From: Eukaryota sp. GEM-RC1 | Taxonomy: Eukaryota | Direction of reading: 5' to 3' | Assembly: GCA_040285855.1 (NCBI GenBank) | Contig: JAUFOQ010000013.1 | Span: 992,001 to 1,056,000, forward strand | Length of the DNA: 64,000 nt | In this document: positions 3,423-62,286 of the stretch, piece by piece | Position numbering within the stretch: the first letter of the stretch is position 1 | How the letters are laid out: every line of letters starts with the position of its first letter | Position numbers and translations under genes: made by a program | Notes under the pieces: generated by a model | Database searches by the model: none | What the model was told of the DNA's origin: nothing | What the model saw: the letters and a program-made list of their open reading frames with translations, nothing else

Positions 3423-4054
3423 CAGCGATGTGAAAACAACATTGCTCCAATATCTATTTCCGCTCTTTGAGGTGGAGAAATATTTATTGTTACACCGGTT
3501 AATTATTTCAATATTTCAATATTGTCAATAAACTTCGAGTTGTTCATTTCGTTGTTTTGCATCACCGTTTGGACTTCCAAAACCAGGTTTGTTGTCTTAT
3601 GTGTTTAAGAGTTGTTTTATCGGTAATGCTTTCTAGTGGTTGTATTGTCATAATGGCTATCATTTGAGCTTAGTTCGAGTCTTTATTGACGTACAATGTA
3701 AATCCTTTGCTCTGAAGTGATTTTCTCTCAAGTTCTCCAGTATTGAAATGCAAATAATGATGAAAGAAAATCGTCTTTTTTTCAGGTTGAAGCTACTGTA
3801 AGACAATCATGAGCACTAGACAATTCGAAGATGTAGACAATTGTGTTGAGATTGTTTCGGATACTTCTGATGATGATGAATAATAGAATATGTGGGTTTT
3901 TTGTAATAAATACAGAATATGATTCATATTGTTGCAATATTGAAATACTGCAATATTGGTTGAAGAATTGCAATATTTATTGGCACTATTTCAGAATTGC
4001 AATTTGTGGCTAAACTATGTGTATATTTATTGCAATATTGTTTTCCCACCCCTA
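3423..4054 (+). mobile_element. Non-autonomous hAT element, decayed copy of the family at 15342-16177
   Basis: Perfect 8-bp TSD CAATGTAG (3415-3422, 4055-4062); degenerate left TIR CAGCGATGTGAAAACAACATTGC; right TIR GCAATATTGTTTTCCCACCCCTA; internally colinear with 15342-16177. Confidence 0.9.
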
Positions 4055-4199
4055 CAATGTAGTAGCAGTTGAATTACGAGAAAATATCTCAAATAGACAC
4101 GTGTCAAACACCGATTATCAAAAATAGACACATTGTTGAATCCTTCCAACTTACTCCTCCTTCATTGATACAGACGAGGAAACTGTTTGAGCACCTATT

Positions 4200-9928: not shown

Positions 9929-10418
9929 TACGTATATCTAAGTGGAGGAGGAGAAGAAGAACATTATAAATTTTATAATTATTTGAAAAATGAAAATAGA
10001 ATAACTAATGTGAAATTATTACATTTAGAATCATTTGAAATATGTGATTTGATATTAACATTTGAATCTAATGATGTTAGTCTTGAATTTTATAAAAATT
10101 TAAAATTTGATGAACATTATGAACATTATGAATTATATATTTTATTTTGTTCAAAAGATGAATATGGTATATATCAAAAAATGGTTTGGAAAATAATGAT
10201 TATAAAAATCAAAAGAGAAATTCTTTAAAATACCATATACTTATGATGAATATAAAGAATATTTATATTTCTTGGAAATAAAAAATGAAATGAATGATGT
10301 AGGGATTCTTTCCTATCCACAATCTTATAAGCATGCTTGTTGATCACACTCGTTTTGTCAGTGTGATCACAATCACAAATTGTGATCACAAATACTGTGT
10401 ATTGGGAAAAATAAAGTT

Positions 10419-10981
10419 TTTTTTGTGATTTTTAAAGTTTATTATAAATGTAATAGATCAAACAACTTAAATTTGATGTCATTAAAACAACACCCGTCGC
10501 TATCAAACCTTACAACAGCTTTGTCCTCATAAAAGGCACTCACTGCTAATAAAGCTTTGGAGATGATTAGGGGAACTGTTTTAAAAACAATAAAAACGAT
10601 CCGATTCAACCATAACGTATGATCAAAACGTTTGTTCATCCTATTTTTTACGATTTTTCCGAAATCGTTTAAAAAATTCAATGCACTTTTTCCTAAACGT
10701 CCGTAAATTGAAACGGCAAAGGGCATAATTCGTACTCAACATGTTTTACATGTTTTAAAGCCATCAATGGTTTTATGTACTTATCCTGTTTGACCTGTTC
10801 AGAAATGTCTAAAGGAGAAGTTTCAGATGAAGCGTTCTTTAAAGATGTCTTTTTACAAACATCAACCGACATTACATCAACAACAAACAATCTGTCTGAA
10901 GAAGAAGGGACAACAACATCTGCTCTCCGTTTACCAAAAAATTGGTTCTGTTTTTCGACATTACAATTATTACTTGGTTCT
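10419..10981 (-). mobile_element. 5'-truncated non-LTR retrotransposon (RLE endonuclease domain + 3' end), copy A
   Basis: LEP...RRADVVV...VVDVMSV...EQVKQDKY...PFAVSIYGRLG restriction-like endonuclease; A-rich tail; flanking direct repeat AAAATAAAGTT (10408-10418, 10982-10992). Confidence 0.85.
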
Positions 10982-10997
10982 AAAATAAAGTTGATAA

Positions 10998-11237
10998 TTT
11001 TTTTTTGATTTTTTTAAAGTTTATTATAAATATTATAGATGAAACAACTAAAATGTGATGTCATTAAAACAACACCCGTCGCTATCAAACCTTACAACAG
11101 CTTTGTCCTCATAAAAGGCACTCACTGCTAATAAAGCTTTGGAGATGATTAGGGGAACTGTTTTAAAAACAGTAAAAACGATCCGATTCAACCATAAAGT
11201 ATGATCAAAACGTTTGTTCATCCTATTTTTTACGATT
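10998..11237 (-). mobile_element. Shorter 5'-truncated copy B of the same RLE retrotransposon
   Basis: Near-identical to 10425-10656; T-run (A tail on the minus strand); imperfect flanking repeat aaagttgataat / agagttggtaat. Confidence 0.8.
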
Positions 11238-11290
11238 TAGAGTTGGTAATAGTGTATTATAATATTTATACATATCGAAATTACATAACC

Positions 11291-12290: not shown

Positions 12291-13908
12291 ATTTATTTGC
12301 AACAATAAATTAATACATACTAATTCAGAAAATGAAAGAAGTTAAATTCTCCACATCAACACGAGAATTGTCCCTATATAACTTCGAATAAATGGAACAT
12401 AAATACTTGGGAATGCTTCTATAAAGAGCGAACATAATTCGATTAATCCATACAGCGCTATTGAACACCTTGCCATTAGAACGACATAAAAGACTAAAAT
12501 CACTGAAAAACTTTAAACCGGTCGGACCAATATTACCAAAAATTGAAATGGCAAATGGAACAAATGAAAACTTAGAATATAGATTTTCATTAAGCTTCTG
12601 CAAAGCATCCGCATAGTTTGAACACTTTTGTTGTTTAGCCTTTTCCAGATGACCATTCGAATCATTTATTCTGGAGTCTTGGTAGACTTTTGCAAACGGG
12701 TCAACTGTAGTAAAATCAACCACAACTTGAGATGAATCCAGGAAAGGAGCAATTAAGTCACCACGCCAAGAATCAAACACGTTATTGTCACTATAATGTT
12801 TCAGAAGAGGTTCAATTTTACAACTATAATTGTAGGATTTGAACATTTCATAAGTAACGTCACGAACAGCGTTATGTAGAACAGATCGAAATTGCAAAAA
12901 TTTCTTGCAACTAACAACATGACGAAAGGTGGCTGTAGATCGGTTATCGCAAACACAGATTGAATTATTTAGCAAACCACTAGGGAATAAACCTAAACGA
13001 AGACGCATATGTTGCTTCCAAGCATCATTGTTCAAATGTAAACCAAAAGGTCTAGGTTGTTGAGTGATAAAGCTAGAACATTGTTGAATGTCACATAAAA
13101 AAGCTGCAAAGACGGGATTATCAATCTTAGTCACACTAAGTCTTTTACTGAAATCCAAGTCTTCCAACTCAAGTAATGTAGGATTCTGTAACTTAACTAC
13201 AGCCAGAAGTAGAAATTCAATTGACCGATCAGGAATAGATGAAACACTTTTCGGGAAACTTTTGGTCCAAACGTCAATAGGCAAACCTTGAACTAAGTCC
13301 TCCAAAGAGTTCAATAAAGCGTAAGAGCCGTCTACAACTGAATCGAAAATATTTTCGAACCGAAGCTTACTCTCAAAAAGAAAGTTTTTCATACCACCAA
13401 CGAAAGCACTTTTACATAAATACTCAGCTCTTGAATAACTAACACCACCAAATTTTGAACTGCAAAAGGCATGATAAGGAATTTTGGAACTATTGATTTC
13501 AACCAAATTCCCTAAAAATTAAGTTCTCAAAGAGTTGAACTCACGAGCAAAACCAAGAGAAAGCTCAGGTGGTAAAGATCTAAGAAGATGATTGATTTTC
13601 GATCCAAAACACACCGAAAGTACTGGAAAAGCCAAGTGGTTATCGATCTTGAGATCTTGTATAGTCTGCAATTGAACTTTGATTTTCTGAAGATAATTCT
13701 TGAGCACACTCTCAATCTGCAAAGGATCGCCAAAATAGGAACCCAAAAAGCGAACAGCTTCAGTGATATAGTCCACAAACTGGATAGATTGCTCACCATA
13801 CATAAGTTCCGCAAACCGCTTACCAATAAGAAAACATTTAGGTAGTTTGATTTCTAAACCAATTGATTGAGATATACTTACAAAATATTTTAAACCATTC
13901 TTAAGAGA
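12291..13908 (-). mobile_element. 5'-truncated non-LTR retrotransposon, RT C-terminal part + Zn knuckle + RLE (CRE/SLACS-like architecture)
   Basis: IGLEIKLPKC and RFLGSYFG (late RT motifs), KFGGV, CVC..H...C, RGDLI..VVDFT..K..K..PFAISIFGNIG; truncated just downstream of where YxDD should be; TSD ACTTAAAG at 12283-12290 and 13909-13916. Confidence 0.88.
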
Positions 13909-15341
13909 ACTTAAAGGTAATTTAATTATAATTAATTGGATTAATTCCATGAGAATTAATAAATTCTAGCCACTGACTGGTGTTTTCATTCGTAATGCAT
14001 AATTCACCACTTTTCTGAGTTTTCTCACACCTTTTCACACACATAAAACCTCTATATTACTACCTTTGAAAATCTTTTGATGACCTCTATACATACTTCA
14101 GCATCTTTTACACTTCAGTAGATGATGTTGGTTACACTTTCAGCATCTTTTTTGTATCATGAACATGTTATATCTTTGCTTAGGCTCCAACTTCGACTCT
14201 GTGATAGAATTTGAACAACAACTAGGCAATCTCCACGAAATGAAAGACTTTCTTGTTCGACAAGTTAATTGTTGATCTCTCTGTGCTATCGGGTAGTGAC
14301 TATTTGGAATGATAAACTCTGACAATCAATAGATCTTCTTACATAACTAGACACCAACATTAACTGATTATCACAGTGTGACTGACTTCACAATTTGGGC
14401 CAGATCAGAGAAGAAACTAAGCATAAGGACAACACTAAGATGTAGATCGATGCATGTCTAAACAATGAGTCTGACATCTGAAAAGTGTGGTTATGTTGCA
14501 TTGATGTGATAATGACTGCTCTGCAACTTCTACGACCTATGAGATGTGTCACTGCCTTATCTTTGAACCCCTTTCTTTCCCGTTTTACTGTGGAGATAAC
14601 TTCCGCAATCGAATAACAAATATTCCAGCTGGAAGATGCTATGCTTTTGAACAACTAGTATTGGTTGTCTGACAACAATAAATATTTTTATATTGGAGAA
14701 CAATTAAATATATATTTAAATTATTGTGAAGCTTAAGTACGGGTGCTAAGTGATGTATATGGAACACTTTACCTCCACCAACCATCGACGTAACACATAT
14801 CTAGTTTATGGTCACAAAGAAGAGATGTATAAAAATATATTCTATATCTATTCTTCATCCGTGTTAACACTTCCTGAATTAGCGTAGGAATTGTTTCAGC
14901 TGCTAGATATTAGGCTGCACTTCCTGAAGCACTTCGTAATGTGACAATGCAAAAGTTTGGACATTAAGAGTTCACAGAAGAGGGTACTCATCAATAGAGA
15001 ATCTTCCTGTAAATTAAAATTAAGTGAGTTTTAGTTAATTTGTATCAGGATAAGTCGCCAATTAGTGACATTTTGCTGAAAATATATTTCAGAAAATCTG
15101 AACGCAATAATTTGCAATTATTGCAATAAATATAATTTTCTCTTTCGTACCCATAAATATTGTAAATGTTTGTAGGAGCACAACAAATGTTTATGACCTA
15201 TAAATATTTAAATATTAAATAAAAATATTTTCTTCCAATAACTGACTTACATCAATTTTCGTCGGCATACTACTGTAGTGTGCTAGTGTAAGTCATGTAT
15301 TGGTGAAAGTGTCACCAATTAACTTTTTATGGAACAAAAAC

Positions 15342-16177
15342 CAGGGGTGGGAAAACAATATTGCTCTTCCAACATTGCAATAAATATTGCTCCAATATTT
15401 ATTGCCGCTCTTTGAGGTGGAACAATATTTATTGTTACACCGGTTAATTATTGCAATTATTGCAATATTGGTCAATATACTTCGAATTGTTCTTTTCCTT
15501 GTTTTGCATCACTATTTGGACTTCCAAAACCATTTTTGTTGTCTTATGTGTTTAAATATAGTGAGAGTTGCTTTATCGTTGATGATTTCTAGTTGGTGTA
15601 TTGTCATAATGTCTGTCATTTGAGCTCAGTTCGACTTTTTAACTAAAAGTACAATGTAAATTCTTTCCCTCACACTTCTGATTCTACATTGCCATAATTA
15701 CTTCTAATGACGAAGTCCAAAGAAACAGAGTCTAGGTACATTGATTTAAACTGTATTCCTTCTACCTCTTACATATGTGAACGACTGTTCAGTAAGTTAA
15801 AGAGAGTGATCAATTGCCACAGATTTTCTCTTAAGCCTTCGAGTCTTGAAATGCAAATAATGATGAAGGAGAACAGTGACTTTTGGGATGAAACTACTTT
15901 ATGACATATCATGACCAGTACAAAATACAAATTCGAAGATGTAGATAATGGTATTGAGATTATTTCGGATATTTCTGATGATGAGGAACAATAGAATATG
16001 TGAGTTTTTTGTAATAAATACATACATATATAATATGATTCATATTGTTGCATTATTGCATTATTGCAATATTGGTCCAATAATTGCAATATTTATTGGC
16101 ACTATTTCAGAATTGCAATATTTATTTTGTGGCTAAACAATATTTATATTTATTGCAATATTGTTTTCCCACCCCTG
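15342..16177 (+). mobile_element. Non-autonomous hAT element retaining a dimerisation-domain fragment
   Basis: Perfect 23-bp TIR CAGGGGTGGGAAAACAATATTGC; perfect TSD ACAAAAAC; ORF 15707-15904 IPSTSYICERLFS...RFSLKPSSLEMQIMMKEN; ATTGCAAT subterminal repeats. Confidence 0.95.
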
Positions 16178-16527
16178 ACAAAAACAGTAAGAAAAAGACA
16201 AAAACTAGAACTGAATAACATTAAAGCAACATTCATTGCCATTAAAACTCACATCAACTTTTTCCTCATAGAAAATACTGAGAGCTAAAAGATCTTTTGA
16301 AATCATAATAGGAATTGTTTTATATACTGCTAAATCAAGAAAGTAGATAATCTAATACTCTAGTCACGCAAGAATCTGAGTAATTCTATCAACAAACTAA
16401 AAGGCTATGGACAAAGTGAGTACGGTAGCAGATTTTGAAGTAGCAAGTGCAGGCCTGGTAACCACAATACACAATACCGATTTGTTTTATTTTATCTTGC
16501 TGTGGTTTTCATTTCAAATGCATAATC

Positions 16528-18018
16528 CTACACACCATTCTCTCCACAGTTTGGCACATTGTTTGGCTGCACTTTAGGTATTGACGGAGGTGACTGAGAT
16601 GGCATTGTCTGTTTACTTTCAGAAACAATTCTTTGTTTTCGTGTTTGAGGAGTAAGACCTGATTGACTGAGTGGATCTCTGGTCCTGATTTTTTTGGAGA
16701 CACGGATAGGTGTGACAGGAACGGGTTTTAATACTGTAGGTGGTAATGGACTGGCTGGACTGATTTTTGATTTTCGTTTGGCAGGAGTAGCACCAGATGG
16801 CTCTCTTGGTTTGGACTTACGTGACTCAGGATGATCAACAGTCGTTACCGTTGGTGGTACAAAATAATTAATAATAGTCTCTCGAACTGAACCAGCATCA
16901 ATGTCCTTGTTAGCGTTCTGTAATTCATCTTTTACAGCTGAAACTTTAACTATATTGCGATAGTTCAAAGCATGTACAAATATTCTGATATACTCAAGAA
17001 CATAGACTCCACAGTCATTAGGTGTTTGTTTCTGGGTAACAGGTACAATGATAGGCCAATACTCAAGCACACTAAGTGCTGAATTCACTGTTGATAAGAA
17101 CACATTGAAGCTACCAGATGGACATTCTACGTTTTCTTCATCTAGATAAAAATCATTAGTGTCGTAATTTGGATCAATGAACAACCACTTTCTGTGTCGA
17201 CAGTTGATAATCAACAACCCCCAGTGATAACCTCTGGTACCTGTATTATTAATAACAGGAGCAATGAAATATCGGCAATAACCATTATTTGTCAATTGTT
17301 GTATGATAAACTTCGTGAGTAGAACAACATCAAATTGTTGAGTGGTTGTATCCACAGCATTGTGCAACATTAGAATCGGAGAAATAAAGCATTCAACAGG
17401 ATAATTATGTAATTTTAAGAGATACAGACAATACTGATCAATAACTTCATCATCGATCCACTCATCAGGCAACAAAGTCTGTAAGGCTGATTCAGAAATC
17501 GGTCCTGGATTGGACTCAATATCACCATCAGCGGTGAGGTCTTCTTTGAATGGATGACGGGAGGAGAAAACTATACGTAATATGAGACACAAAGCAGAAA
17601 AAGATGATGAAACAACAGAAAGGATCATCTGAGGAATATTACGAGACGAAGTCGAGGGTATGATGGAAAGCACATGAACACAATTCACATGGGCTGTTTC
17701 ACTAGCGGAAACGAAAATAATTCTCCAACATCTCATTATACTACCTTGGTCTTGAGGAGCGTGTGAGGATGAAGTAGTAAGGCGGCAGGTGGAAGAGTAA
17801 CTCCAACATCTCATTATACTACCTTGGTCTTGAGGAGCGTGTGAGGATGAAGTAGTAAGGCGGCAGGCGGAAGAGTAACTCCAACATCTCATTATACTAC
17901 CTTGGTCTTGAGGAGCGTGTGAGGATGAAGTAGTAAGGCGGCAGGCGGAAGAGTAACTCCAACATCTCATTATACTACCTTGGTCTTGAGGAGCGTGTGA
18001 GAGAATTGATGTCGACAT
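16528..18018 (-). CDS. 2A-like StopGo peptide followed by a Ulp1/SENP-family (C48) cysteine protease and a Pro/Ser/Lys-rich tail
   Basis: EDLTADGDIESNPGP; LLPDEWIDDEVIDQY; YHWGLLII (His); FIDP (Asp); QKQTPNDCGVYVL (Gln/Cys). First ATG at 18018, alternative ATG at 17628. Confidence 0.88.
   Translation of the reverse strand: MSTSILSHAPQDQGSIMRCWSYSSACRLTTSSSHAPQDQGSIMRCWSYSSACRLTTSSSHAPQDQGSIMRCWSYSSTCRLTTSSSHAPQDQGSIMRCWRIIFVSASETAHVNCVHVLSIIPSTSSRNIPQMILSVVSSSFSALCLILRIVFSSRHPFKEDLTADGDIESNPGPISESALQTLLPDEWIDDEVIDQYCLYLLKLHNYPVECFISPILMLHNAVDTTTQQFDVVLLTKFIIQQLTNNGYCRYFIAPVINNTGTRGYHWGLLIINCRHRKWLFIDPNYDTNDFYLDEENVECPSGSFNVFLSTVNSALSVLEYWPIIVPVTQKQTPNDCGVYVLEYIRIFVHALNYRNIVKVSAVKDELQNANKDIDAGSVRETIINYFVPPTVTTVDHPESRKSKPREPSGATPAKRKSKISPASPLPPTVLKPVPVTPIRVSKKIRTRDPLSQSGLTPQTRKQRIVSESKQTMPSQSPPSIPKVQPNNVPNCGENGV
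17500..17541 (-). other. 2A-like ribosome skipping motif DLTADGDIESNPG|P
   Basis: Exact match to the D(V/I)ExNPGP consensus with the GD and DLT upstream residues typical of active 2As. Confidence 0.85.
17723..18001. repeat. 78-bp tandem repeat, ~3.6 copies
   Basis: Units start at 17723, 17801, 17879 and 17957, with one substitution; they encode SHAPQDQGSIMRCWSYSSACRLTTSS in frame. Confidence 0.97.
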
Positions 18019-18548
18019 TGAAAGTAAATGATTGTTTGACAAAGATTTCTTCCATCTATAGTAGGATATCTTACAAGTCAGTCACATTTCATATAATTCC
18101 AAACGTAAGAGCTACTAGCTATCTCCTACTTACTAGCTACTAGCTATTCACCCATACCTCCTGACGACTAAGAACTTATGTCCACTTCAGATTTTCTGTT
18201 TCATACAAGTGTCTCATATAGATTCAGGGTTACTCTAGTGTTGACATTAATAAACATAAATCTCTCTACATAAAACTTTATCTCTCATAAGGTGTAAAAG
18301 TAATAACATGTATATTATCTTTTAAAAGCAAACTAGTATGCCTATGTAATTTGTTTGTTGATGTTTTCTATAGTATGTTTTAAAAGTATATGTGATAAGT
18401 TATTTTATATTGTAATTCAACGTATCTATATTCAGATTAAAGCAAAGAGAAGTTATTAATTGATGACCAATGATTTATTCCTACTGCTAGTAGCTACATG
18501 TACATATCCATTGTTATAAAGATTTTATGATCGTATCAATCAATCCAA

Positions 18549-21500
18549 TCAATCTGTAAAAGTTCTGACTTCATCAGGTACATAAATATCATCGCGAAAG
18601 TACTCAATATACTTTTTCGACAAATTCTTAAAGGAAAAAAGATCGTCGTCATGTGCCAAAAGAATCTTCAACTTGTAAACTTTTTCATGCAGAGTTCGAA
18701 GTAGTAGCATGTCAGAGGGAATGTCATATACGATGCACATGAGATTGTTTCCAATGCTACAGTCTGGATTGTTACAGATCATGTTAAATGCTACTTGTGT
18801 GGCTGCAACAAGAAGTGCTTTGCTTTTTTCTTGCAAAAATAACTTGAATGTATTTGTTTTCTGGGGAGTTTTTGCAAGATTGCATAAGGAGAATACGGTA
18901 CATGGTAACTTTTGTTGAAACTGTCTTACGAGATCTCTACCAGTATCAATGTTTCCAACCGTGATAATGATTTTATCTTGTGTGTTCAAATATGTGCCCA
19001 GTAGTTGTTGCAAACTATCCAATTTGAGGTGTGATACAATTAACTGTGATTTTTCCGAGCACGTGGGAATTGATGAAGATATACTTGATGAGGGAGTTGG
19101 ATGAGGGAGTTCTTCGACAGATTCTTCATCATGTGAACCCAATAAATTCACGTAGTCAGAATCCGTGTCATAATTCGGAGCTATCACATCACTTTCAGTT
19201 CTTACTTTTTTTTCTGGTTTAGTCACTTTCATAGCGTCTGATCTTCGTTTGCGGATATCTGGGAGATCTTTGTCTTCAGATATTTCGTCTTCAGAAATTT
19301 CGTGTTGGAAAAAGCCGGCCAATAGTGATTTGGAATGCTTAGAAAAAGTCCAGTCCGGTGGTGGGTTCGTAGATATTTCGGAAGAGAAGGAAGATGCAGT
19401 ATCTGCCCAGCGTAGAGTCACAATACTTCCTGTGTCAACAACACAATAGATTTCGGGCTTTACGAGTGATGGGAAAATTTTAATAAATTTGGAAAACTTC
19501 ACATTAGCAGAGACAAAACGATTATCAGTTTCCAACGTATTCTCTTCAACATGGTGAATACATATTTCTAATCGTTCAGAAACGTATATGATATACTCGG
19601 GGTGGCCAAATAATCCACAAGCATCAATAATGACCTCGTGTGTTCCCGTTCGAAAAATACATTCTGCAGTGGCATTAGTCTGTGTGACAGAAACAATATA
19701 CAAGGAATTATCTCCGATAATAATTTTTTTGTGACTAATATCAGGAATCACTCCAAATTTTTTAAAGTTTACACCATTTGGAGTGGAAATGATGACATCA
19801 TTGAAGTCAACACTGTTTTGGGCATAAAAAATTGATTTAGCAGTCAACAGCAGATGCATATAGAACATCTTAAATTCGATAAAGGTCGAATCAATCACAC
19901 TTTCTGCTTTTGGAAGATCATGTCTTTCAACATATTTACTTGAATCCTTGATTGCTGGAATATGGGTTAAAACACCATCTTTTCACTAATATATACATCT
20001 TTACGCCTGACACTTACACTACTACATTCAGTCATCACTCCAACTTCAGAAGTAAAAAGATTTCAGTACTAAAAATCCGTGTCGCGAAATTTAATACAAT
20101 GACACTACATTGATTTTTAATGGGTAAGAACACCCACATTGAAGAGGGATGAGTTGGAATGGTGCCTTGTACTGCTATTGAACTATAATCAAAATTGGGA
20201 AGATCAATTCGATTCCATAAACAGTCATCACCAACTGTCCATATCAATACTTCTTGAGAAGCTGTCAAAACAATAAGATACAAGCCACATCTAGTAATTA
20301 CTGCATTTTTAATTTCAGATGCACATGATTGTGTAGAAACAGCTGTGAAATTTAATGGATCAAATGGAGTTGATGACAACAAGACATTGGCAAGAGCAGG
20401 CTGAGGTATAGGTGGTTGCTGGACAAATAATGGTTGAAGGTCAGTTGTATCTGTCTGTAATTCCACAGATGAATTCTCAACATGGGATAGGGGTTCAGTT
20501 TCAGAAAAGTAGTATTTTCCTGAGGCAGAGTAGGTACGCATATATTCAATCAGTTCAGTTAAAACATCGCATTTGACACAATTTGGACATTCAACATTGT
20601 TGCAAAATTTAAAGGTATCAACATATTGGTCGATTGAAAACGGCTTGAGACCACCAATGTCATAAGATATGTGCTGTAGATCAATAACTGATCCAGGTTG
20701 TACATTTGTAACAAATGTGAGTTTCTGTTGAAGTATCGCGATCTGTTCAAATAGTAATGATGGAGAGATTCTTAATCTTTCAGCCAGATATAGAATAAAT
20801 CGACATCGATTAAGACAACCAATGACATTGATCAATTGAGATAATACATCTGCATCATAATCATAGTCAAGTTGATCACCGTCAAAATTAAGAATTGCAA
20901 TCTTTTGTTGTTCAATAGATCCCTTCGTAAAATTGAGAAACATTAGTTGGGTGAATAAATTTAATAGTGTAGGCTGAAAGTAGCAACATAATGAGGGGGA
21001 AACTGTTTTTGTGATGACACAAAAACACCAGAGTAATTGTAGCAACAAGAGGCAGGTAAACGAGTGAAAAGTGAATTGTCAAATTTGAAATCAATGCCGT
21101 CTACAGAACCATTCAGTGTAGTACACTTCAAGGGTTTTTGATAATAATCGTTTTCAAACATCGGTACCATATTAAGTTCTAGTTTTCCATTACGATCACA
21201 AACAAGATGTTTATTTAACAAATTGGCAATCTTTTGATTAGTAACACGCTTTTGTTTATCCATATCATGAAGTGGTTTATAATTACCAGAATCCAGACAG
21301 ACCGAACAATGCACGTCATTGATGAACGGCAATATGCGTTTATGAAATTTTGAAGCAACCTCATTTTCGAACATTTTGGCAAAGACGAGAGGTGTTACAG
21401 TGTTGTTGGATTTGTAAAGGGTTAGAAACAAACGCTTTGGATGATCTTTAGGTAGCAAGTGTAAATGAACACTGTTTTTCAGGTATTTTGAAAAACATAG

Positions 21501-22900
21501 AACATCATTCAAATCATTGAGGTCGAGTGGTAGTATATCCTGCATCATTTGTTGAAAGATACATTCAATAGGAACTTCAGTTGGAGATGTGAGGACTGTT
21601 GAACTTCGTGGACTACGGAACAAAATTGTATTGTTAGGATAAGATGAAATAAACAACTGGGTCAATTTTTCTGATTCTGTTAAGTAGCAAAGTTGTTGAT
21701 AGAATCGCTGATTCTGGAAAGCAGACCATTCATTATTATTCTTATCGATAAAAGTACGGTTGAGATTAAAGTTTCGAAATTTGAAGCGATTAGTGAGTAA
21801 CACCTTAACACGATCTGCATTATTAAGCATAGTTTCAAAAATGAATTCCAAGGAGTCAATATGGCCTTTAAATGAATAATGAATCATCGACTTGTTGTTT
21901 CCACTTGATGATCTGATTAATTTTTCTAATTAGTGTATCACAGAAAAACTTGAGAGATTGGATATTTAAAAAGTCCAGAACTTCAACATTGATTGTACCA
22001 GATAGTAATCGGAACAAAAATTTTAACATAACATTTAAATCTGAATATCCATGATCAGCGTCATCAGCAAGATACAATTTCAAAAAGTTCCCAAATTTAG
22101 CAACTTGATTTACACTATCTGTATGAAACTTGAAGTTGAACAATTGTGTATCAAATGCACATAATAGGACCAATCCCGGAATAACTTGTTTTCCAACAAA
22201 ACAATTAAAAACAAAATGAAAATGTTCATGAGAGTCACAAAACAAAATTCCCATTCGACCCAATGGTGTTAGTCCATCTACGATATATTCACTTTCCATG
22301 ATGTTTCGAAGATATAAAGAATGCATTGCTACATCCAAGAGATCATCCTTTGGTGGATCAGGCATTGACTTGATAAAGTTTCGTGGTGTGTTTGAAATCC
22401 TTTTGACTGTTAAAAGAAAATCTTCCAAGGGAGAATTAAGAATTTGGGGCAATTTAGTTTGATGCCTGAATTCGTTGCCGATATATTCAAAGTCAAATAA
22501 TCTGATACATATACCAGGCATGGTTCGACCAACTCTCCCAGCACGTTGAATTGCTGAGGACTTTGAAACATGGTGGAGAATCAATTCCTTTTTATAATTT
22601 GGAATTCTTTCAAGTCCAGTGTCCAAAGCGATCACTGCATTGTCAATTGTGAGGGAAGACTCTGCAATGTTCGTAGAAGCAACTATTTTAAATTCTTTGT
22701 TTTGAGGTTTACTTGTTGCCTTCTGTTGATCATCTCCACTCATGTCAGAATATTACTATTTTTTCCTACTACAGTAGGATCTTCGTTCTCATGATCATTG
22801 TAGTACTCTAGAATCTAGCCTCAAGATAGGTTCTGCTTGATAAACATTGCTTTGCATCCGCTATGTAGGTCAATATTTTTTCCTTTTCATTCAATTCTTA
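18549..22900 (-). CDS. Large (~1400 aa) frameshift-fragmented protein: DEAH-helicase RecA2/HA2, Cys-rich segments, beta-propeller-like region, degenerate DEAD-type C-terminal domain; N-terminal helicase half missing
   Basis: STNIAESSLTID (motif V), QRAGRVGR (motif VI), PDPP..LTPLGR (HA2). Four abutting minus-strand ORFs. C-terminal KLDSLQQLL..KIIITV..LLVAATQVA..IVYDIPSD. Confidence 0.65.
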
Positions 22901-22966
22901 CTCAATATAACGAACATTTGATATGTTACGTGTTTACGAAACACAATGATATGAAACATGTTTTTA

Positions 22967-23614
22967 TTAATAGGAATCTGACCCCTTATCAAAAGGGTTC
23001 TTCATAAAACTAGACCTTTTGACAAGAGAATTAAGAGGAGGAAGTGGGGTCGAAGTGATTTCAGTTGATTCTGACTCTAACTCATTGCTTGAGTTACTTG
23101 ATTCTTCTTCATCATTCAATAATTTTTCTTCTCTAACTGTCTTTGGAGATTTAACTTTCTTCATCTTAGCAAGTCTTGCAGAACATGAAACTTTTTGATG
23201 TTGTTCATGTTCTGCAAGATCAGACAAGTCTATTGCTGAGTCAGTTTGATCTTGAATCAAAACATTATATAAATTTTGAGAGGACAAGGAAGTAGTGGTA
23301 CCATTCTTTTCTTCAAGAATATGAGTTTCTTTGTTAATAAAGAATTCAATGTTTTCCTTAAGATTATCACCAACAACATTTTTAAACCATGTTGTATTGT
23401 TGGTGGACACTGCGATATGAGAAGTACTATCAGCAGCTCGGGTGACTAAGATAAAATCTACATTGATTCCGAGATTGTAAGATGAAGTAGAAGGAGTTGA
23501 TTTTGTCTCAGTAAAAGAAAAGACATTGTATACATCTTGATGTTTAGATGCATACTTCCTCTGATAAGCAGAAAGACGACGTTTCCGAGACAAAACGTTT
23601 GTTGATGAGTTCAT
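22967..23614 (-). CDS. Hypothetical protein
   Basis: Uninterrupted ~215-aa ORF with a basic N-terminal SRKRR and an acidic/Ser-rich C-terminus. Confidence 0.6.
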   Translation of the reverse strand: MNSSTNVLSRKRRLSAYQRKYASKHQDVYNVFSFTETKSTPSTSSYNLGINVDFILVTRAADSTSHIAVSTNNTTWFKNVVGDNLKENIEFFINKETHILEEKNGTTTSLSSQNLYNVLIQDQTDSAIDLSDLAEHEQHQKVSCSARLAKMKKVKSPKTVREEKLLNDEEESSNSSNELESESTEITSTPLPPLNSLVKRSSFMKNPFDKGSDSY

Positions 23615-23657
23615 GCAAATTTTGCCGGTAAACAAATTCTCCTTCATCGGAATCTCA

Positions 23658-24437
23658 ATGTCTTTGAACGAATCTTCTCTTGAAGTGATGTCAAGTCTGT
23701 TAGCACAGTTTCATGAACAATGCAACAGAAGTTTGATAACCTTATGCAATTGTTGTCATTGTACTTCGTTAGGAGATGATTCTGTGACCACTTCTATATC
23801 AACTTCCTTAAAAGATCTTGTGTCAACTCTGTTCTACCCTTCATCAGAAACTTCTAATGTTGAGGAAGTCTTAATCAGAGTATCTCATCTTTGGCAGTTC
23901 ACGCCTCTACTCAACAGTTTTCTCAATTGGTCAGGTTTAATTGATATTCTTCTTCATTGTTGTCTCAATGATGATACTTGTTTGTTTTTGAAGCATTTAC
24001 ATTTGATGATCACTAGTTTTGCTTGTTCAGTTGGTATATTATTTTGTCACAGTTCTCGATCTTCTACAACTTTATTAATTCCTGCTTTCCTCCAAAGTTC
24101 ACTTCATGATGATGGTCATTTAAGATTTGTTTATTTTAAAAAGATTGAGGATAAATTGTTGCTATTACTTGAGGACAATGATTATTGTTTGTCTGTTTCA
24201 AAGTTTGTTTTGATTTTTGTTAACATTGTTTTAGCAAAAGGTAATTGTAATGATTATACTGAAGTTGTCAATTTGTTTAGTTTTATTTTAGAACGAAGTG
24301 ATTTTGTTGACTTGAAACATGTTTTGACTTGGAAAATGTCAGGAAATGATGAGATTGATGTGGATAATTTATGTGATGAATTGTTGCAGTTTAATGATAG
24401 TGTAGTGAAGTATGTTTGTAAGTATTTGTGTAAGTAG
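23658..24437 (+). CDS. Hypothetical Leu-rich helical protein
   Basis: Uninterrupted ~260-aa ORF, divergent from its neighbour. Confidence 0.55.
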   Translation: MSLNESSLEVMSSLLAQFHEQCNRSLITLCNCCHCTSLGDDSVTTSISTSLKDLVSTLFYPSSETSNVEEVLIRVSHLWQFTPLLNSFLNWSGLIDILLHCCLNDDTCLFLKHLHLMITSFACSVGILFCHSSRSSTTLLIPAFLQSSLHDDGHLRFVYFKKIEDKLLLLLEDNDYCLSVSKFVLIFVNIVLAKGNCNDYTEVVNLFSFILERSDFVDLKHVLTWKMSGNDEIDVDNLCDELLQFNDSVVKYVCKYLCK

Positions 24438-24439
24438 AT

Positions 24440-24601
24440 ACATCTTGTATTACACATCTTGTATTACACATCTTGTATTACACATCTTGTATTACACATC
24501 TTGTATTACAAATCTTGTGTTACACATCTTGTAAAACACATTTTGTATTGCAAATCTTGTGTTGCAAATCTTGTGTTACACATTGTAAAACATATCTTGC
24601 A
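24440..24601. repeat. 14-bp minisatellite (TACACATCTTGTAT)n, ~11 copies degenerating rightwards
   Basis: Tandem units directly visible. Confidence 0.95.
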
Positions 24602-39882: not shown

Positions 39883-40710
39883 ACACCTCTTTAAACACCA
39901 TATACAATGTAATCTGTTAAAATCATTGATTGCTCACCTGCTGGGTTTGGTTAAACTAGTGTTTTTCGCTCAAAGTCCCACCACATTAATGATATTGTTG
40001 CCACATTTTACTTGAATACATTATATTTCGTCCAATATTTTGTGAAAGGAGTTATACATTCCAAAAGTATGTAGGAGTTTTATTAAATGTAATCAATTAG
40101 ATGATATCGATTCTTCTGAATGTGTACAATGGATGTAGGAATCGTCTCAATGCCACATTTACACCTGCAATTAATTATCCAAAAGTAATTCACTTTTGTC
40201 TCGTTCTTAATAATGCTGTTGGTGACGTTACATTTGAAATGTGTTAACCATTTAAAGACTGTAGAAAAACGTAATACATTTTTCCTCAGTTTGTTACGCT
40301 CAATCAAAAGTTGTATTAGACTCATGTGTTATTTCTATGTAAAGTAGTATAGGTGAAATGGCTTCTGAGTTTTTAATTGATTTTGCTGTATATTGGATGT
40401 ATCATTAAGTTCACTAACTCTTATTTTTGATAATATCACTACGGTATACCTACATCTAACAATCACTATAATCAATGGCCAAATTGCCTATTTTGTAATT
40501 CTCACCTATGGTATCCTCAAAATGTCTGCCAAGATAAAGTAGATCATTAGATACGGAAGTCACCATACCTTTAAAGATAGAAAACACAATTCGACTCTTC
40601 CAAAAATCCAAGACCATAAGTGCTAGATTCTTTTTCTTTTACAGTCTTCACAAAGATTTGAAGTACTATTGTTGCAGATTCACCTGAAAATCATCATAAG
40701 TATCATCATG

Positions 40711-40787
40711 TGTTGGGCTTAGTCATATGAATAGAGAAAAGTGAATTTATTAATACAAATAGGTCCTGATGAGTCATGACACTAACA
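40711..40787 (-). repeat. 3' LTR (77 bp)
   Basis: 76/77 identical to 46870-46946; flanked by CATG at 40707-40710; contains AATAAA on the minus strand. Confidence 0.96.
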
Positions 40788-43700
40788 TTACTTCTTCCCC
40801 CCTTTTCGAGGACCTAGTCCTCTTAGCAGGTGGTGTAGTGAGAATGACGGAATTAGGAGTGTTACTAGAGTTTGAGTTACGATTACGACTACTTCTAGGT
40901 TTACTTTTAGGGTTAGCTTTGGGTTTGGCGTGAGGATTTAATTTAATAAAGCTTGAGTACGCTTTGGTGTTCTTAACTAGACTCAGAGGTTCCTCGGTAG
41001 TATCGCCGTCAAACCATACGACAGAACATATGGGCCCTGTAGGTGAATCACGTTGATCAAGGATCTCGATTATGACCATCTCTTCAGAGTCGCATGAAGC
41101 TACTGCCTTGTGGAACTCGTCAGAGGAGGGTTTGTCGGAAAGGTACTTGGTGCATAGATGGATGCTGGAGCGGAAGCGATGTCCGGTGACAAAGTTCTGC
41201 AGTTCAAGTGAGCTTTTGGAAGGGATGTCGATGACGAGGTACGGTCCCTCTTGTTTGCCATGAAGCTTCTTAACTGCTTTGTTACTTCGTAGTACTAAGT
41301 CACCGATAGCGAATAGCGAGGGTGTATTGTCTGTAGTAATAGAAGATTTGATAGATGATTGGGTGGTTTCTGCTTCTTCCCGTTTTTTCAAAATTCTTGT
41401 TAATTTTGATTGGTAATCAGCTAGAAAGGAATCTTCTGAAATCTTGTTCTGAGTGAGACAAGAGATGATTTTACTTGGATCACTACCAGGGTTGGTGTTA
41501 GATCCAAACATCAATTCGTACGGTGTAAAGCCGGTTACTCTACTCTTCGTAGTGTTTACCAGCAGTTGTACTAGTGGGATGTATTTACTCCAGTTGTCAT
41601 AGTCATTAAAGTCTATGAGCATCTTTCGTAAAGCTTGTAGGATGTCTCTGTGTCGACGTTCAACTAAACCGTTGCCAGGAGAGAAACTAGGTATAGATTT
41701 ATTAGTTGTGATGTCAAATTGATTGCAGACGTCATTGAAAACGTGATTAGCAAATTCTTTGCCATTGTCACTGTGAATGAGGTCTGGAATACCGAAGATG
41801 GCGCAAACGTTACACACTAACGAATATGCTGTCTCATGAGCATTCAGTTCCTTTAGTGGGCATAGGATTGTGAATCTGGTGATGGAATCTATGAACACTA
41901 GTAGGTAATTGTTTCCCGATGTGTCAGTAGGAAGTGGTCCTATAGTGTCGACGTTCATCTTTGCAAATGGTTTGTCGGACCATAAATTACCTGAAGATTT
42001 GATAGTTGTTTTGGCAAGGGGGGCTGTCTTTTGACAAGCTGGACATTGCCTGCAGTGAGTTTTCATGTCGTTGATCATGCTGGGCCAGAAGTAGTCACTA
42101 GATTTTAGCCGATCAATGCTATCTTTAGTACTGGGGTGACCTGCATGTGGAAAACCGTGTAAGTGGTTCAAGGTGGTTTTCACCAAGGCACTTGGTATCA
42201 AGATCTTGTTGTTGCTATTCATGTATAGCTGGAACTCTTCATTGAACCAAGTAGACGGGTGTTGGAACAATGGATCGTTATTTTTGATGGCTTCTACTTG
42301 TGTAGAGCGTACTTTCGAAAGCCAAGCGTCGAATAACTTCGATTTGTTGATCAGAGCATCGTCAATCATGTTGATTGATTCTGTTGATAAGGTTTGATAT
42401 TCCGTATCCTCATCAGTAGGGCATCGGCTATCGGTTATAGAGAACAAATGCTCTGGGCAATATGTGGCTATGTGGTTTATAGACTCGGTTGGTGCGTCTT
42501 TGGTAACATTGCGTGACATCATGTCAGCCCAATGGTTGTCTTCGCCACTGGTGTGGACTATAGTGAATAGGTATTCGCTGAGAATAGGGATCCATCGTTT
42601 GACCATCCTGTTCTTCTCGGGTGCTGAGATTAAGTAAGCGAGGTTTTTGTGATCTGTGAAGATCGTTAGTTCCCTGCTGATAAGGTATGATGACAGTTGG
42701 GATTCTGTTAGAATTAGGAGAATGGCGTACAATTCCTTTTGGATTGTGGCCCAGTTCTGTTGAGAGTCAGTGAGTAGTTTGCTGTAGAATGCTAGTGGTT
42801 CTACTTTGCGTTCGTTCAGTGGAGTTCCCTCAGTGAGGGTGCATTCTAGCCAGATGACACCGCCTACGGCGATATCGCTGGCATCTGCGCTGATCAGTAT
42901 GCGTCTGTCTTTGTCTGGTAGACATAGGGGCATGTGATTGATTATCCTCTTTTGATCTCATCAAAATTTGATTGAAGTTGAGGTGTCCAATGAACTGTTC
43001 GTGCTTTGTTCTTTACTAGGGCTATTATGGGAGCTAGTAGGTCAGATGCATCTGCTATGAAATCTTTGATGTAGTTGATAGAGCCGACGAAACTTCGAAC
43101 TTCTTTTATGGTGGTCGGTGTTGGTATATTTACCCGAGCTTCTACACGTTTTGAATCGATTCGACGAGTGTTGTCGATGTATTCGCAACCTAAGATAGTT
43201 ATAGGATGATTCTTTGTAATGAACTTGCACTTGTGTAAGCCAAGGTTGACTCTATAAAGATGAGCTCTCTCAAGAACGAATTTTATTCTAGATGAGAATT
43301 CATCAAAAGTTTTGGCAACTATGATGATGTCATCGATGTAGATGAATACTCCTTCGTGGTCGAAAATATCCATCATTAAGTTTTGAAAGATTGCTGGTAC
43401 GTTCTTCAAGCCAAAAACACGCTCGTTTGAATCGAATGGCTAGGCCATGGATGACTAGAGTTGTCTTGTCGCGTTCGTGATCCGCAGATTCAGTTGCCAA
43501 AATGCTTTTGGCAGGTCGAGAGTGGCTATGTAGTTAGCTTCACTCAGGAATTCCTGTATGTCTGCGATTCTAGGTAGATTCGGTTGTACAGATTTGGTAA
43601 GTTCGTTCACTCCTCCAGTACCACTGAAGTCACCAGTAAGTCTAGGCTTACGATGATCGGGGTAGACCACAAGTACTACCGGGGAGCTGAATTTTCCGTC

Positions 43701-44450
43701 GGGTGTAGTATACTCAGCGTATCCCTAACGTACTAGTTCGTGAAAAGTTTCTTCGGCTATCCTTTGTTTAACTGGATTAAGCCTCCGAGGTTTTCGTTTC
43801 ACCGTGGACTCTTCGTTGTGGAAGTCAATTGTCATCGGTGGACAATCGATGCCATCTTTGTGTGGAACGGAATCGAAGATAACTGAGAACTCATTGAGTA
43901 GGTTCAGTAAACGATTGGTTCTATCATCGTCATCTAATGTGATTAAATAACCGGAATCATAAACAAATTTATTGAAATCTGTATTGTCTATAATTGAAAG
44001 GCTATTGGGCATAGATATGTTGGAGTCGAACTCAGACTCGTCGTTGCTATGAGCTAACATAGTTTGTTGAACCGGGATGATTAGTCCCTGTTCAGTCAGT
44101 AAACCTAACTGCTTCATGAGATCAATACCTAACAAACATTTGTTGGATCCAGGGATGATAGGTAAAGTCTTCGTCACAGATGTTAGGTGTGTCACCTTAC
44201 TGAACTTGAAGGTCAAGATCCCCTGGGCGCTACCCAGTGAGTGAGATCTGACGTTGTTTGCAGATGTGAATGGAACCTTCTTGTTGATGAAAGTCATTGA
44301 ACATCTATCGACCAGGTCTTGTGTGATAACGGACATTGATGCTCCACTGTCCCATAGACCCTGAATCGAAACACCATTGATGGTCAGACTGCAGCTGAGG
44401 AATGGTGGTGGATCCTGGTGATCGGTAATGCTGAATATCGAATTCAGGCT
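40774..44450 (-). CDS. pol: pol: protease, RT, RNase H, integrase, chromodomain (frameshifts and one in-frame TAG at 43725)
   Basis: LWDSGAS; LDLPKAFWQL; FIYIDDII; ADASDIAVGG..KELYAI..TDHKNL..ADMMSR; H..H..CPAC; VDTIGP, SDNGKEF, GLVER; GPY; EILDQR...VVWFDGDTTEEP. Confidence 0.93.
40788..40806 (-). other. Polypurine tract AAAAGGGGGGAAGAAG
   Basis: Immediately upstream of the 3' LTR on the coding strand. Confidence 0.9.
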
Positions 44451-44499
44451 TATAGAGTTCTCACCACTCGAATTACTGATGTTGTGGAGTGGGTTTGCG

Positions 44500-46885
44500 T
44501 ATGGATTATGTGAATCCGACGATGATGTGTTGTTGTGAATATGGTTTATGTGTTGAACGATATACTTATCAGATTTATTGTGTCTACGCGAACTATTACT
44601 ATGACTACGAGAGGGAGGTTTCTTTGCCTCAGATCGTGGAAGGCGTTGGTTCGCGGGAAGTTCACTTCTACGGCAGTCGGAGTGATTGCAGAGATTGATC
44701 TTATGATCAGTGGAATCACAGAAACTGCACTTGTTGGGGTCTTTCTCAGCTGGGTCTCTCTTCTCGGAGCGGTTCCTCTTTTTGAAGGAAGGAGATGGAG
44801 AAGGAGCAAGTCTTTGATCCGAAGATCTAGATTTGTAACCAGCGGTGGTGGAGAAGGATTTCGTGGCTGACCTTTGCATAGCCTTGGGTAGGTCACTCCA
44901 GGAATCCTTGTCACGGTGGACTAGGATCTCAACGTCCTTCTGTTCGCGTTGAACATGTGCAGGGGGAATGTTCCCATCTCTTACACCACGTGTTGTAGTG
45001 TTCGAGTGCAACGGTAAAGAACGTGTGGAGGTCTTTGGAGTCTTTGTACTCTGGCCAGAGGGTCAGGTAAATAGAAGCGATGCCAATATTCGTGAGTAAA
45101 GCTTTGACGATTACTCTTTCTTCGAGGCTCGAGTAAACGTTGGCCTTTGAAGTGCGGATCAGTGTGCTACGGTTCAAGATTTTATCAAAGCGTCTAATGA
45201 AGTCCAACCATCGGTCTTCATGATCTCTAATGTTCCAGGTCATAACGACTTCATTGATTTTGTTCCTCGCTGTAATGTATTCTCGGAACTGTGTCCTGAG
45301 GATAATTTCAATAAAGAGATTGCGGTGATCTTTCGTTGATTTGCCTAGGTAGGACAATTGTTGTTGAACACGGAAATCTATCAAACGGGGAACCCATCGC
45401 GTGTCAGCGTCGCTGGCGGCAATTCGGCCAATGTCAAAGAAGAAAGTAGCTTGACCCAAAGGTTTGTCGGTCGGTTGTTTGTAGTCAGGTTGAGCTAAAC
45501 AAAAGCTCATGTAGTTCCCAATCCAATGAATCATGACGTCGGGGTCGTCGAGAGTTTTCAAGAGAGGAGGAGTGATGGACTTGTTCAGGTCACTGTTCAT
45601 GTCGGTAGGTAGTCGCTCGGTGAACTTCAGGACCGAAAATGGAGTCTGAATGGGGGGAGGGCTATCCGACTGAGCGGGAGTGCGAGGTTGGTCTTCTGGA
45701 GATACGGAGAGGGCTCCTACCTACCCTTTGACGAATGCTGTGGTCAGCATGGTCTCGGGGTCCAAACGGCAGTACAGCAGGGTCTCTGTGCATTAAGTGG
45801 GGAGAAAATCCACTTGTACAATTCTCCGATATTTCACCGGGAATATAGGGAGCGTCTTTGACCAATGGTGGGACAGTGTCCGAGGGATTGTAATTTATCG
45901 CTGGGATGTTGTAAGACGGAACTTCTACATCCGTGTAACTATTGAGGTCGTCTATTTGACTCTCAATATCTTCGACTACTTCTTTTGGAAACGGTGTTTT
46001 CAGCAGATTATAAGCCTGGTGAGTGGATACCAGAGAATTAACACGGTTCTTGTCCATAATAAATCCTAGGAGTTTCCCTTGACCGCTTAGAACAGACGAA
46101 ATCTCTGGGTCGAGATTGATCCGATAGTTGAAATACCTTTGGTAGACTCTTTTCAGCTGTTTAGCTGGTTTGAGGAGAAAACTGTCTTTCTCGTATTCCA
46201 GATAGGTCTCACCATTGAGGCGGGATTGTTCTCTGAGTTCTTGCCATTGCTTGGCGTCGAAATTCTGATACATCCTACGTTCAGCTTCGTGTATTTCTTT
46301 AGCCGAGGAACTCGTGGTTAGCAAACCTGGGAGATTGGGATCTGTTCCAGGCATGACAAATCCTAGTACCGTGGTAGGGGGCTTGGGAGCCATTCTAGGT
46401 TTTTGGGAGTTCGGTGGGATTGGCTTGGGTAGCGGCGAAATTGAGGGGCTGGAAGCAGGGTTTGTCTGAGGTGTGACGGTGACAGGAGACGATTTCTTAC
46501 GAGGAGTATTTCTATTCGCCTTCCCTAAACAGGGAGGGTTTTCGTTCTCGACAGGTGGATTGGTACGCACCGGGGAGTTTACAACCTCGTGAATGGTTTC
46601 CTCTGGAGGATTGTTATCCTCGGGAGAGGAGTTATCAGGAGATTCGGGATCCACGTCGGATTCCACGAAGTCTACCGTGTCATCCCAAGGTTTTCCGTCA
46701 GGTCCCAATTCGGTGTTTGGGGTGGGGTTGTCCTTGGCTGCCAGGTCGGAACTGGACTTTGAGTTCTTGCCTAGGTCGGAACTAGGACTTGGGTTAGAGT
46801 TGCTTTCAGGAGTATAATGCTCCGGTAAACATACACATTGCTGCTCTTTGCAGAGGCCACAATAATTATTGTTGGTCTTAGTCAT
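44500..46885 (-). CDS. gag: Unusually long gag-like region with an N-terminal Cys motif, Pro/Ser-rich segment, capsid-like region and CCHC knuckle
   Basis: ORFs 45662-46999, 44929-45600 and the start of 43725-45011; CSFCDSTDHKINLC knuckle; in-frame ATGs inside the 5' LTR. Confidence 0.75.
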
Positions 46886-46946
46886 ATGAATAGAGAAAAG
46901 TGAATTTATTAATACAAATAGGTCCTGATGAGTCATGACACTAACA
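46870..46946 (-). repeat. 5' LTR (77 bp)
   Basis: Direct repeat of 40711-40787; followed by CATG at 46947-46950. Confidence 0.96.
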
Positions 46947-53711: not shown

Positions 53712-54259
53712 AACCAATTTCACTAATGTTTAAGACTGATTTGCAGTTTTCAGTCAATAGTGTTGTAGAAGATGTGTGTTATCTATCTGCATCAATTCAC
53801 TACACTCTGTTGATTACTCGTCATTTTTTTTGAATGAAGGAAATCGTGTGTAGGGGAGATGCTTCTTGTGACTTTACTGGAGATTTTTCCAAAATACGCA
53901 TCAGTGCAGTAATTTATAGTTCTACTGCGTTTGATATCGTCCAAGTTATAGTATCAACTAATAGGATCATGAACGCCATACTTATATTACTATGGGGCAC
54001 TTTGGTGTTTGGGGGTTGTTCTAGATAATCCCATACCAAAGTGCATAAATTAACAAAGTTAAATCTCTACTATTTACAAGAAGTAATGTCTTGTACAAAG
54101 TGACGTGAATAGCTGGTGAATGTATGGATTGATATTCACAATATTTAACAGAATACACTCTATTCAATAAAGATACGAAAAAGACATGAAACAAAATTAA
54201 ATCTGAATTGTTTCTCCCGTTGTGTGTGGTTAAACTTCATAATTTACTTTTGAATGCAT

Positions 54260-61796: not shown

Positions 61797-62286
61797 TAAA
61801 AGATGATGGGTAAATATATTTTGTTTCCAAGGCAATTTCCTCACATTGTGTTGATCCTCCTCAAGAGTCGATCACAGACAGGAATTGTCATTTGTGCGTT
61901 TTATGAGAGTTATGAAATAGTTGACACGAGTTGTTCACATGCAAACGTTATTGGTTACACTTCGATTATTGCTTAGTCTAATCCCATCTTCTGCTTATTT
62001 GCAGTACACTACTTGGGATCTGCTTAAAAAATGATATTACTGTTTTTTATATTGTGTCCGTATTTGGGTTTGATTAATAAAATCTGCATTGACGCAAAAC
62101 GATTTTCAGAACTGTCAACATTACATAGCAATATAATGTCCAATCCAATAATGCAATCTTCGTTTAGGCTGTAGTCTAATGCAATTACAATGTATTTCAC
62201 AGTATTGATCATAAACCCCGTTTTTTGATAAAATGAATAAACTAATTTAAAGTTCTAGCATAAAACGCAATATGCAGGTGAATAAG

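Follow-up and report, generated by a model that had tools for sequence, protein, structure and literature searches.

Ulp1-type proteases of the C48 family are found in MULE, CACTA and Zisupton elements, which carry DDE transposases. An N-terminal C48 domain is also carried on the polyproteins of the mobile elements NeSL and Utopia-1_TSP together with RT and RLE domains, in a report whose accessible text mentions neither a 2A peptide nor a Fanzor (PMC4640811). Recoding by 2A (StopGo) peptides is described in reviews as largely viral with sporadic cases in retrotransposons, and the APE non-LTR retrotransposons L1Tc, Ingi and CR1/L2 bear a 2A near the N-terminus of one long ORF (PMC3894237). Fanzor1 nucleases occur in diverse transposons (PMC10530073, PMC3627910, PMC10432273, PMC10711439, PMC11423790), where they are mostly 600–700 amino acids long according to the accessible text, and the accessible main texts of the Fanzor surveys contain no fusion to a protease, peptidase or exonuclease. 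Each part of the putative element considered here is known from one of these systems (Fanzor1 itself, Ulp1 on NeSL/Utopia, and 2A in LINEs), and their combination was not found described. The literature covered, to which Repbase reports and most subscription papers do not belong, yielded no description of a Fanzor with Ulp1 or of a Fanzor with ribosome skipping; Ulp1 is absent from the main text of three 2A surveys, and the accessible text of PMC6338049 and PMC3417536 contains no 2A–protease–Fanzor design.

The ORF under study resides in a 64-kb stretch of DNA from Eukaryota sp. GEM-RC1, referred to in its entirety as the window, within a minus-strand frame at 16528–18081 that is free of stops (517 amino acids from stop to stop). 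A leader peptide of 172 amino acids extends up to the 2A Gly, and the Pro-initiated product would be 324 amino acids long if skipping occurs (Table 1).

Table 1. Features of the 2A-bearing ORF, in positions of the window
Feature	Position	Strand	Basis or remark
ORF of the window copy	16528–18018	-	ATG at 18018, giving 496 aa
Leader tandem array (78-bp unit × 3.6, 99% identical)	17723–18001	-	Repeat detection
Hydrophobic stretch MILSV...RIVF	17566–17628	-	Leader type A only; not conserved in the family
2A/StopGo peptide, class A core with upstream motif 4 (DLTxDG)	17500–17550	-	FKEDLTADGDIESNPGP
C48/clan CE cysteine protease domain, closest to SENP8/NEDP1	16850–17499	-	Pfam, profile, AF2/Foldseek
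Catalytic residues	His 17224–26, Asp 17173–75, Gln 17026–28, Cys 17011–13	-	All in place
S/T/P/K/R-rich linker (60 of 95 residues) with basic clusters	16564–16849	-	Composition
Truncation junction (about 11 unrelated codons, then stop)	16528–16564	-	Similarity to P0037 ends at about 16564–16549

Among longer proteins, five of 678 candidates matched the ORF, all of them Eukaryota sp. GEM-RC1 models, and these five sit in clusters totalling 35 gene models. A phmmer search against 1.84 billion representatives returned 34 matches, three of which were already in the set; the 20 that were looked up included 15 from GEM-RC1, three from TZLM3-RCL and one from TZLM1-RC. GEM-RC1, TZLM3-RCL and TZLM1-RC are presumably isolates of the metamonad genus Skoliomonas. 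The Skoliomonas isolates are the subject of a genome preprint (10.1101/2023.05.03.539051). Six of the 96 proteins in the resulting set were put aside (four virus-like polyproteins, one 3x2A peptide and one distant Ulp1), leaving 90 family proteins, named by a check of all but six, of which 48 span the 2A junction and 42 start downstream of it; as the family queries contained the 2A, 2A-bearing proteins are enriched among the matches. The leader and protease of the window are 84–86% identical to GEM-RC1 models (85% for P0037). The ORF is one member of a family with many dispersed copies and a mobile appearance, which agrees with the mobile-element origin suggested by the first-pass annotation. 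Candidates from scans of viral contigs (five with the protease, 82 with a Fanzor alignment) and of metagenomes (76 with the protease) all failed confirmation. A host SENP8/ULP gene, expected to be single or low copy with a constant N-terminus, was rejected, since 41 of the GEM-type models bear the 2A and the named family models are spread over 11 or more large contigs. Clustering of the 75 locus tags is weak (p 0.04–0.08), and no larger composite element is therefore claimed.

The peptide DLTADGDIESNPGP ends at 17500, directly before the C48 domain, an arrangement already recognised in the first-pass annotation, and it contains the single D[VI]ExNPGP occurrence in the six frames of the window. 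By residue composition, the core would be expected there 3.0e-5 times by chance, and 5e-12 times with DLTxDG added. The skip is predicted between the Gly codon (17503–17505) and the Pro codon (17500–17502). The peptide is assigned to class A motif 4 as the D(V/I)ExNPGP core, DLTxDG, Gly at p11 and Ser at p15 are all present; of the WV(R/K) signature before DLT, the window has FKE, and Phe replaces Trp in GEM-type copies, whereas the Trp of the viral motif is kept in all seven TZLM junctions. DLTxDG and D(I/V)ESNPGP are common to this family and to the motif 4/class A 2A peptides of RNA viruses, as given in the accessible text of PMC12846837 and, for H15A/B, of 10.64898/2026.09.24.754024; unlike viral StopGo, the family 2A resides in a cellular genome, in a probable DNA element, before a protease domain. 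In reticulocyte lysate, a motif 4 representative studied by Li et al. (DLTxDG, Asp at p12, Ser at p15) showed almost 100% StopGo (PMC12846837), and similar W(V/I)RDL...GDVESNPGP peptides reached 89–95% in cells (10.64898/2026.09.24.754024), while in class B peptides the change of Trp to Phe lowers activity about 2.3-fold (PMC12338488). Ribosome skipping at a 2A of the window type is expected with considerable confidence, judging from the motif and its conservation.

Among the 48 junction-spanning proteins, drawn from three Skoliomonas isolates, the 2A core is intact in 43. The five damaged cores are those of P0037 (Thr for Ile/Val), P0048 (frameshift), P0053, P0074 and P0085; P0037 is the closest relative of the window copy. 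The 14-mer is identical to that of the window at 10–14 of 14 residues in 11 of 11 chosen relatives, in ten of which the protease is only 26–38% identical (88% in P0037), and over the 30 residues upstream of the 2A, six positions at most match the window in nine of the 11. Because the core stays intact while proteases diverge and leaders are unrelated, the 2A is in all probability genuine and under selection. Used as sole query, the motif retrieves picorna-like and dsRNA-virus-like polyproteins, and a degenerate 2A pattern led to one metagenome locus (L001, 2631–2671, minus strand) on an RNA-virus-like contig with an RdRp match of E 3.8e-9; its 2A is a DLTMDGDVESNPGP variant with Phe upstream, whose 14 residues are the same as in some GEM-RC1 copies. 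The motif might instead stay unskipped in the host and serve as a conserved linker or as a hub of recombination at the DNA level, as module swaps centre on the 2A sequence and as the supplement of PMC12338488, in which none of five names searched turns up Skoliomonas, contains the identical 14-mer once, unclassified and with no record of its activity. This reading is scarcely probable, since it is precisely the residues of viral StopGo motif 4 that are conserved, over three isolates and RNA viruses.

The repeat-bearing leader noted in the first-pass annotation is borne out by the 78-bp array. Of the six frames of its unit, a single one is open, namely that of the 2A, with one in-frame ATG in each unit, and the unit recurs, as 27 amino acids, in P0024, P0038 and P0043. 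In-frame repeats are present in 25 of the 48 junction proteins and fall by eye into about 10 unrelated types with periods from 23 to more than 50 amino acids, open in-frame repeats being over-represented because gene prediction tends to select for them. Four different protease starts occur with leader A, and two each with leaders B and D; in all, about 10 leader types and about eight protease starts meet at one conserved 14-mer. Most simply, the leader peptide would be disposable, and the 2A would make the product independent of it. The array could possibly represent the promoter or 5′ array of the element. A ribozyme or structured-RNA role for the repeat was rejected, as it has no Rfam match and folds worse than 99 of 100 shuffles (z +2.3).

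The window protease matches Peptidase_C48 with an E value of 1.5e-7, above the Pfam cut-off, and retains the His, Asp, Gln and Cys reported in the first-pass annotation. Profile comparison of the family with the PDB gave 1.7e-18 for SENP8 and 1.2e-16 for Ulp1, a margin of only about 6 bits, and the AF2 model of the window protease (pLDDT 75) has NEDP1/Den1 structures as all of its top six Foldseek matches. The protease is a candidate NEDD8- or SUMO-cleaving enzyme, with SENP8/NEDP1 (1XT9, 2BKQ) as the best match in both sequence profile and structure, and Ulp1 close behind. It differs from SENP8/NEDP1 in its identity of about 16%, in lacking the first 14 residues of SENP8 and in sitting within a multi-copy polyprotein. 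The fold had been placed within about eight codons of the 2A Pro and lies even closer: the SENP8 alignment of the family profile begins about three residues past the Pro, and AF2 confidence in P0033 climbs from 36 to 73–89 at that residue. Nine copies (P0003, P0004, P0012, P0020, P0022, P0024, P0026, P0040 and P0081) carry two protease domains, the second of which is preceded by no 2A and has its catalytic Cys changed to Ser in seven of the nine, which suggests a substrate-binding pseudo-protease. Self-processing at a di-Gly was rejected, as GG is absent from P0001 and P0037 and no such site is common to the subfamilies among 11 proteins.

In relatives, the linker, whose basic clusters could be a nuclear localisation signal, leads into a PolB-type exonuclease domain (PF03104), detected by Pfam in 21 of 35 cluster members at E ≤ 0.05 (best 5e-8). 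Its match in the PDB profile search is weak (1e-3 over 66 residues), and AF2 leaves the region unfolded in P0033 (pLDDT <50), a model with a mean of 43 in which the protease alone is folded. The exonuclease-like domain is probably inactive, because the aligned motif-II Asp is replaced. An origin from a Polinton/Maverick or PolB DNA virus was rejected, as PF03104 alone is present, followed by helical and Fanzor sequence and no polymerase, and no relatives on viral contigs were found.

Beyond the exonuclease-like domain, residues 621–1022 of P0033 are 48% identical to residues 9–427 of P0090, and P0033 also overlaps P0095 (83%). P0090 matches Fanzor1 of Spizellomyces (SpuFz1) with an E value of 6.5e-11 and that of Guillardia with 0.009, and has Mucoromycota and NCLDV (giant-virus) clusters as ESM Atlas neighbours at 0.95–0.96; P0094 matches SpuFz1 (3.5e-9) and PpFz1 (1.5e-4); its RuvC-I Asp and its WNRD align, and its last feature is a CCHC knuckle. 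The relatives show the REC/WED/RuvC-I homology with catalytic Asp that marks Fanzor1, and this region and the C-terminal WNRD align with SpuFz1 (8GKH), PpFz1 (9CF0) and GtFz1 (9CER). The zinc-finger region of P0094 shows one CxxC and WNRD (Cas12f1-like_TNB E 0.0012, below cut-off); its first half, with the first CxxC, was seen in no model, and the region of the RuvC-II Glu is missing from all 13 Fanzor-motif models. As P0033 by itself matches no Fanzor structure at E ≤ 1, its link to Fanzor is transitive, and the link rests on GEM-type models, as distinct from those of the TZLM isolates and of the F-type leader family. A TnpB-like tail proposed for P0061 of TZLM3 found no support.

The fusion was pieced together from overlapping frameshifted gene models; none of them spans the entire polyprotein, parts of which may be bridged by predicted introns. 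The 81 GEM-type models include 41 with the 2A junction, 26 with the exonuclease motif and 13 with the Fanzor motif; 14 combine 2A and exonuclease motif within a single model, seven run from the 2A through to a helical segment common to Fanzor-bearing models, and one, P0033, spans the 2A to the Fanzor REC motif. Given that single spanning model and the fragmentation of the others, the protease and the Fanzor could be neighbouring separate genes that gene prediction fused via false introns, but two subfamilies, about 48% identical, are colinear over the domain junctions, and in four of five tests (the fifth was not significant) the broken end of one model is compatible with the next model read in a different frame, along 14, 14, 8 and 18 residues where shuffles reach 5–7 at most. 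The tail of P0037, the relative that ties the protease type of the window to the fusion, is for instance frame-compatible with P0005 over 8 residues (maximum of 6 in 200 shuffles), and the ends of P0004 and P0005 overlap the start of P0090 in the other frame over 14 residues (shuffle maximum 5). A fitting error mode is, moreover, present in the window, where a large membrane-protein gene occurs in inverted duplication (47147–52406, plus strand; 56532–61871, minus strand) and four of four indels between these two host paralogues are single-base losses in A/T runs; since such losses break reading frames, the breaks in the gene models are plausibly assembly errors. Separate genes are, on this evidence, distinctly improbable, and the relatives are very likely to encode a polyprotein of protease, exonuclease-like domain and Fanzor1 in one frame, an architecture predicted from tiled models. 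The beta-subfamily models P0004, P0005, P0022 and P0024, all four that reach so far, end at one position of the exonuclease domain at which P0090 starts in the other frame. This common end point is likely a shared homopolymer error, and may be a programmed −1 frameshift.

That the window ORF is a fragment went unnoticed in the first-pass annotation. P0037 extends to the exonuclease start, the similarity of the window to P0037 stops just ahead of that start, and tblastn with 13 and with eight family proteins found no exonuclease or Fanzor sequence in the 64-kb window; the window ORF is therefore the 3′-truncated front of a longer element, lying amid transposon debris. No convincing terminal inverted repeats pair the regions upstream and downstream of the ORF in the window. 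A 34-bp pair (13977–14010 and 16500–16533, 76% similar), which may be due to chance, lies close to where the 2A ORF is truncated and where an RT fragment begins. An omega-RNA or Fanzor tail at 16178–16565 was rejected, as 100 of 100 shuffles fold equally well and no protein match was found.

The truncated copy could yield only the leader and a free 324-amino-acid protease–linker product. To this extent, the proposal that a deSUMOylase/deNEDDylase is freed by skipping from a leader anchored in the membrane, so that the products occupy two locations, suits the window copy, whose hydrophobic stretch upstream of the motif is present as described (Kyte-Doolittle 19-mer 2.1) and whose product stops behind the linker. 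However, hydrophobicity exceeds 2 only in leader type A (6 of 43 scored junctions, the remainder scoring 0.66–1.96 and having no sequence in common), the end of the window ORF is a break in homology, and the longer relatives run on into exonuclease and Fanzor sequence with no second NPGP in their polyprotein, where the protease is predicted to be an N-terminal domain. A free protease thus stands for the truncated copy alone, the membrane-targeted leader is not upheld, and the proposal is very improbable for the family.

Transposon remains surround the truncated copy. A hAT-type MITE of 836 bp with a perfect 23-bp TIR and an 8-bp target-site duplication occupies 15342–16177, with a related copy at about 3438–4057, and an LTR retrotransposon with RNase H and integrase (Pfam) occupies 40711–46946 on the minus strand, flanked by 77-bp direct repeats that are 99% identical. 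The minus-strand segment 12325–13965 appears to be a 5′-truncated fragment resembling a non-LTR retrotransposon (RT C-terminus, CCHC and RLE-like motifs); it has no Pfam match and one in-frame stop, and shorter relatives lie at 54211–55078 (plus strand), 10408–11238 and 40134–40241. Such a fragment on the same strand, 2.6 kb downstream, together with the N-terminal Ulp1 domains of NeSL and Utopia-1_TSP (PMC4640811), would allow the window ORF to be the 5′ end of a Ulp1-bearing RLE non-LTR retrotransposon of the NeSL/Utopia type with its RT-RLE half at 12325–13965. Yet no family model contains an RT domain (Pfam, 35 + 31 + 8 proteins), and the DNA in between is unrelated and contains the hAT-type MITE, so this origin is extremely improbable. 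Upstream of the element, five same-strand ORFs at 18549–23710 (minus strand), with a clear Pfam match only at 21868–22752 (Helicase_C), are probably one or two frameshifted genes, and a 14-bp tandem repeat (× 10.3) lies at 24440–24583, just before a PSMD5-like gene.

Taken as a whole, the mechanism in which the window ORF is the truncated front of a multi-copy, likely mobile Fanzor1 element with a 2A polyprotein is considered probable. Its full frame would likely read repeat leader, 2A, one or two Ulp1/SENP8-type proteases, linker, degenerate PolB-type exonuclease, Fanzor1 and CCHC knuckle. Ribosomes probably initiate at an AUG within the tandem array, which differs in sequence and in number of units from one copy to another. 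Skipping of the Gly–Pro bond would then drop the leader and leave the same Pro-initiated protease N-terminus in every copy, a step in which we place high confidence given the conserved motif. The product, estimated at about 1,500–1,600 amino acids (939 + 381 + 115 tiled residues and an assumed gap of 100–150), would be imported into the nucleus and, with a guide RNA from the 3′ end of the element bound to it, cut vacant sites, by analogy with its Fanzor1 homologues. The attached protease might strip NEDD8 or SUMO off host proteins and so counter degradation or silencing of the element, for which we see an even chance. The preferred route of spread, put forward tentatively, would be break-induced recombination, because the tiled polyprotein contains no transposase and leaders and proteases recombine freely at the 2A.

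The same architecture would be retained if the 2A chiefly throttled the nuclease, many ribosomes terminating there and so limiting a genome-cutting enzyme. Such a role has been argued for the 2A of single-ORF LINEs (PMC3894237), the 2A comes early in a long nuclease ORF, a placement shared with L1Tc, and the conservation data are all compatible with it; throttling alone leaves unexplained why the protease fold starts about three residues past the Pro and why unrelated repeat leaders stay in frame, and in the published assay motif 4 acted with almost full efficiency (PMC12846837). Throttling as the chief role is accordingly unlikely, and leader removal by skipping is preferred.

The family resembles Fanzor1 Spu-1 in being multi-copy and in having an ORF without a transposase, as far as the accessible text describes Spu-1 (PMC10432273, PMC11423790, PMC3627910). 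It departs from known Fanzor1 in the 2A, the one or two C48 domains and the exonuclease-like domain that would precede the nuclease, and in its tandem-repeat leaders; it departs from 2A-bearing LINEs in that no family model contains APE or RT, the payload being protease and Fanzor. In a bolder form, which we regard as doubtful, a transposase-free homing Fanzor1 would deliver to guide-specified DNA both a deNEDDylase/deSUMOylase of its own and a proofreading domain that has been disarmed, with a virus-derived 2A that sheds exchangeable promoter-repeat leaders and is the crossover point where leaders and variants of the protease are reshuffled in an arms race with the host.

The role of Fanzors in their native genomes is an open question, and the pairing of a Fanzor1 with a protease for ubiquitin-like modifiers would suggest that RNA-guided cutting is connected with control of host NEDD8/SUMO. 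The predicted fusion would be a natural Fanzor1 scaffold that tolerates large N-terminal fusions, and 2A recoding would be extended to a probable DNA element and to metamonads. With its many leaders and protease starts around a single 14-mer, the family would represent a natural experiment in a culturable free-living protist.
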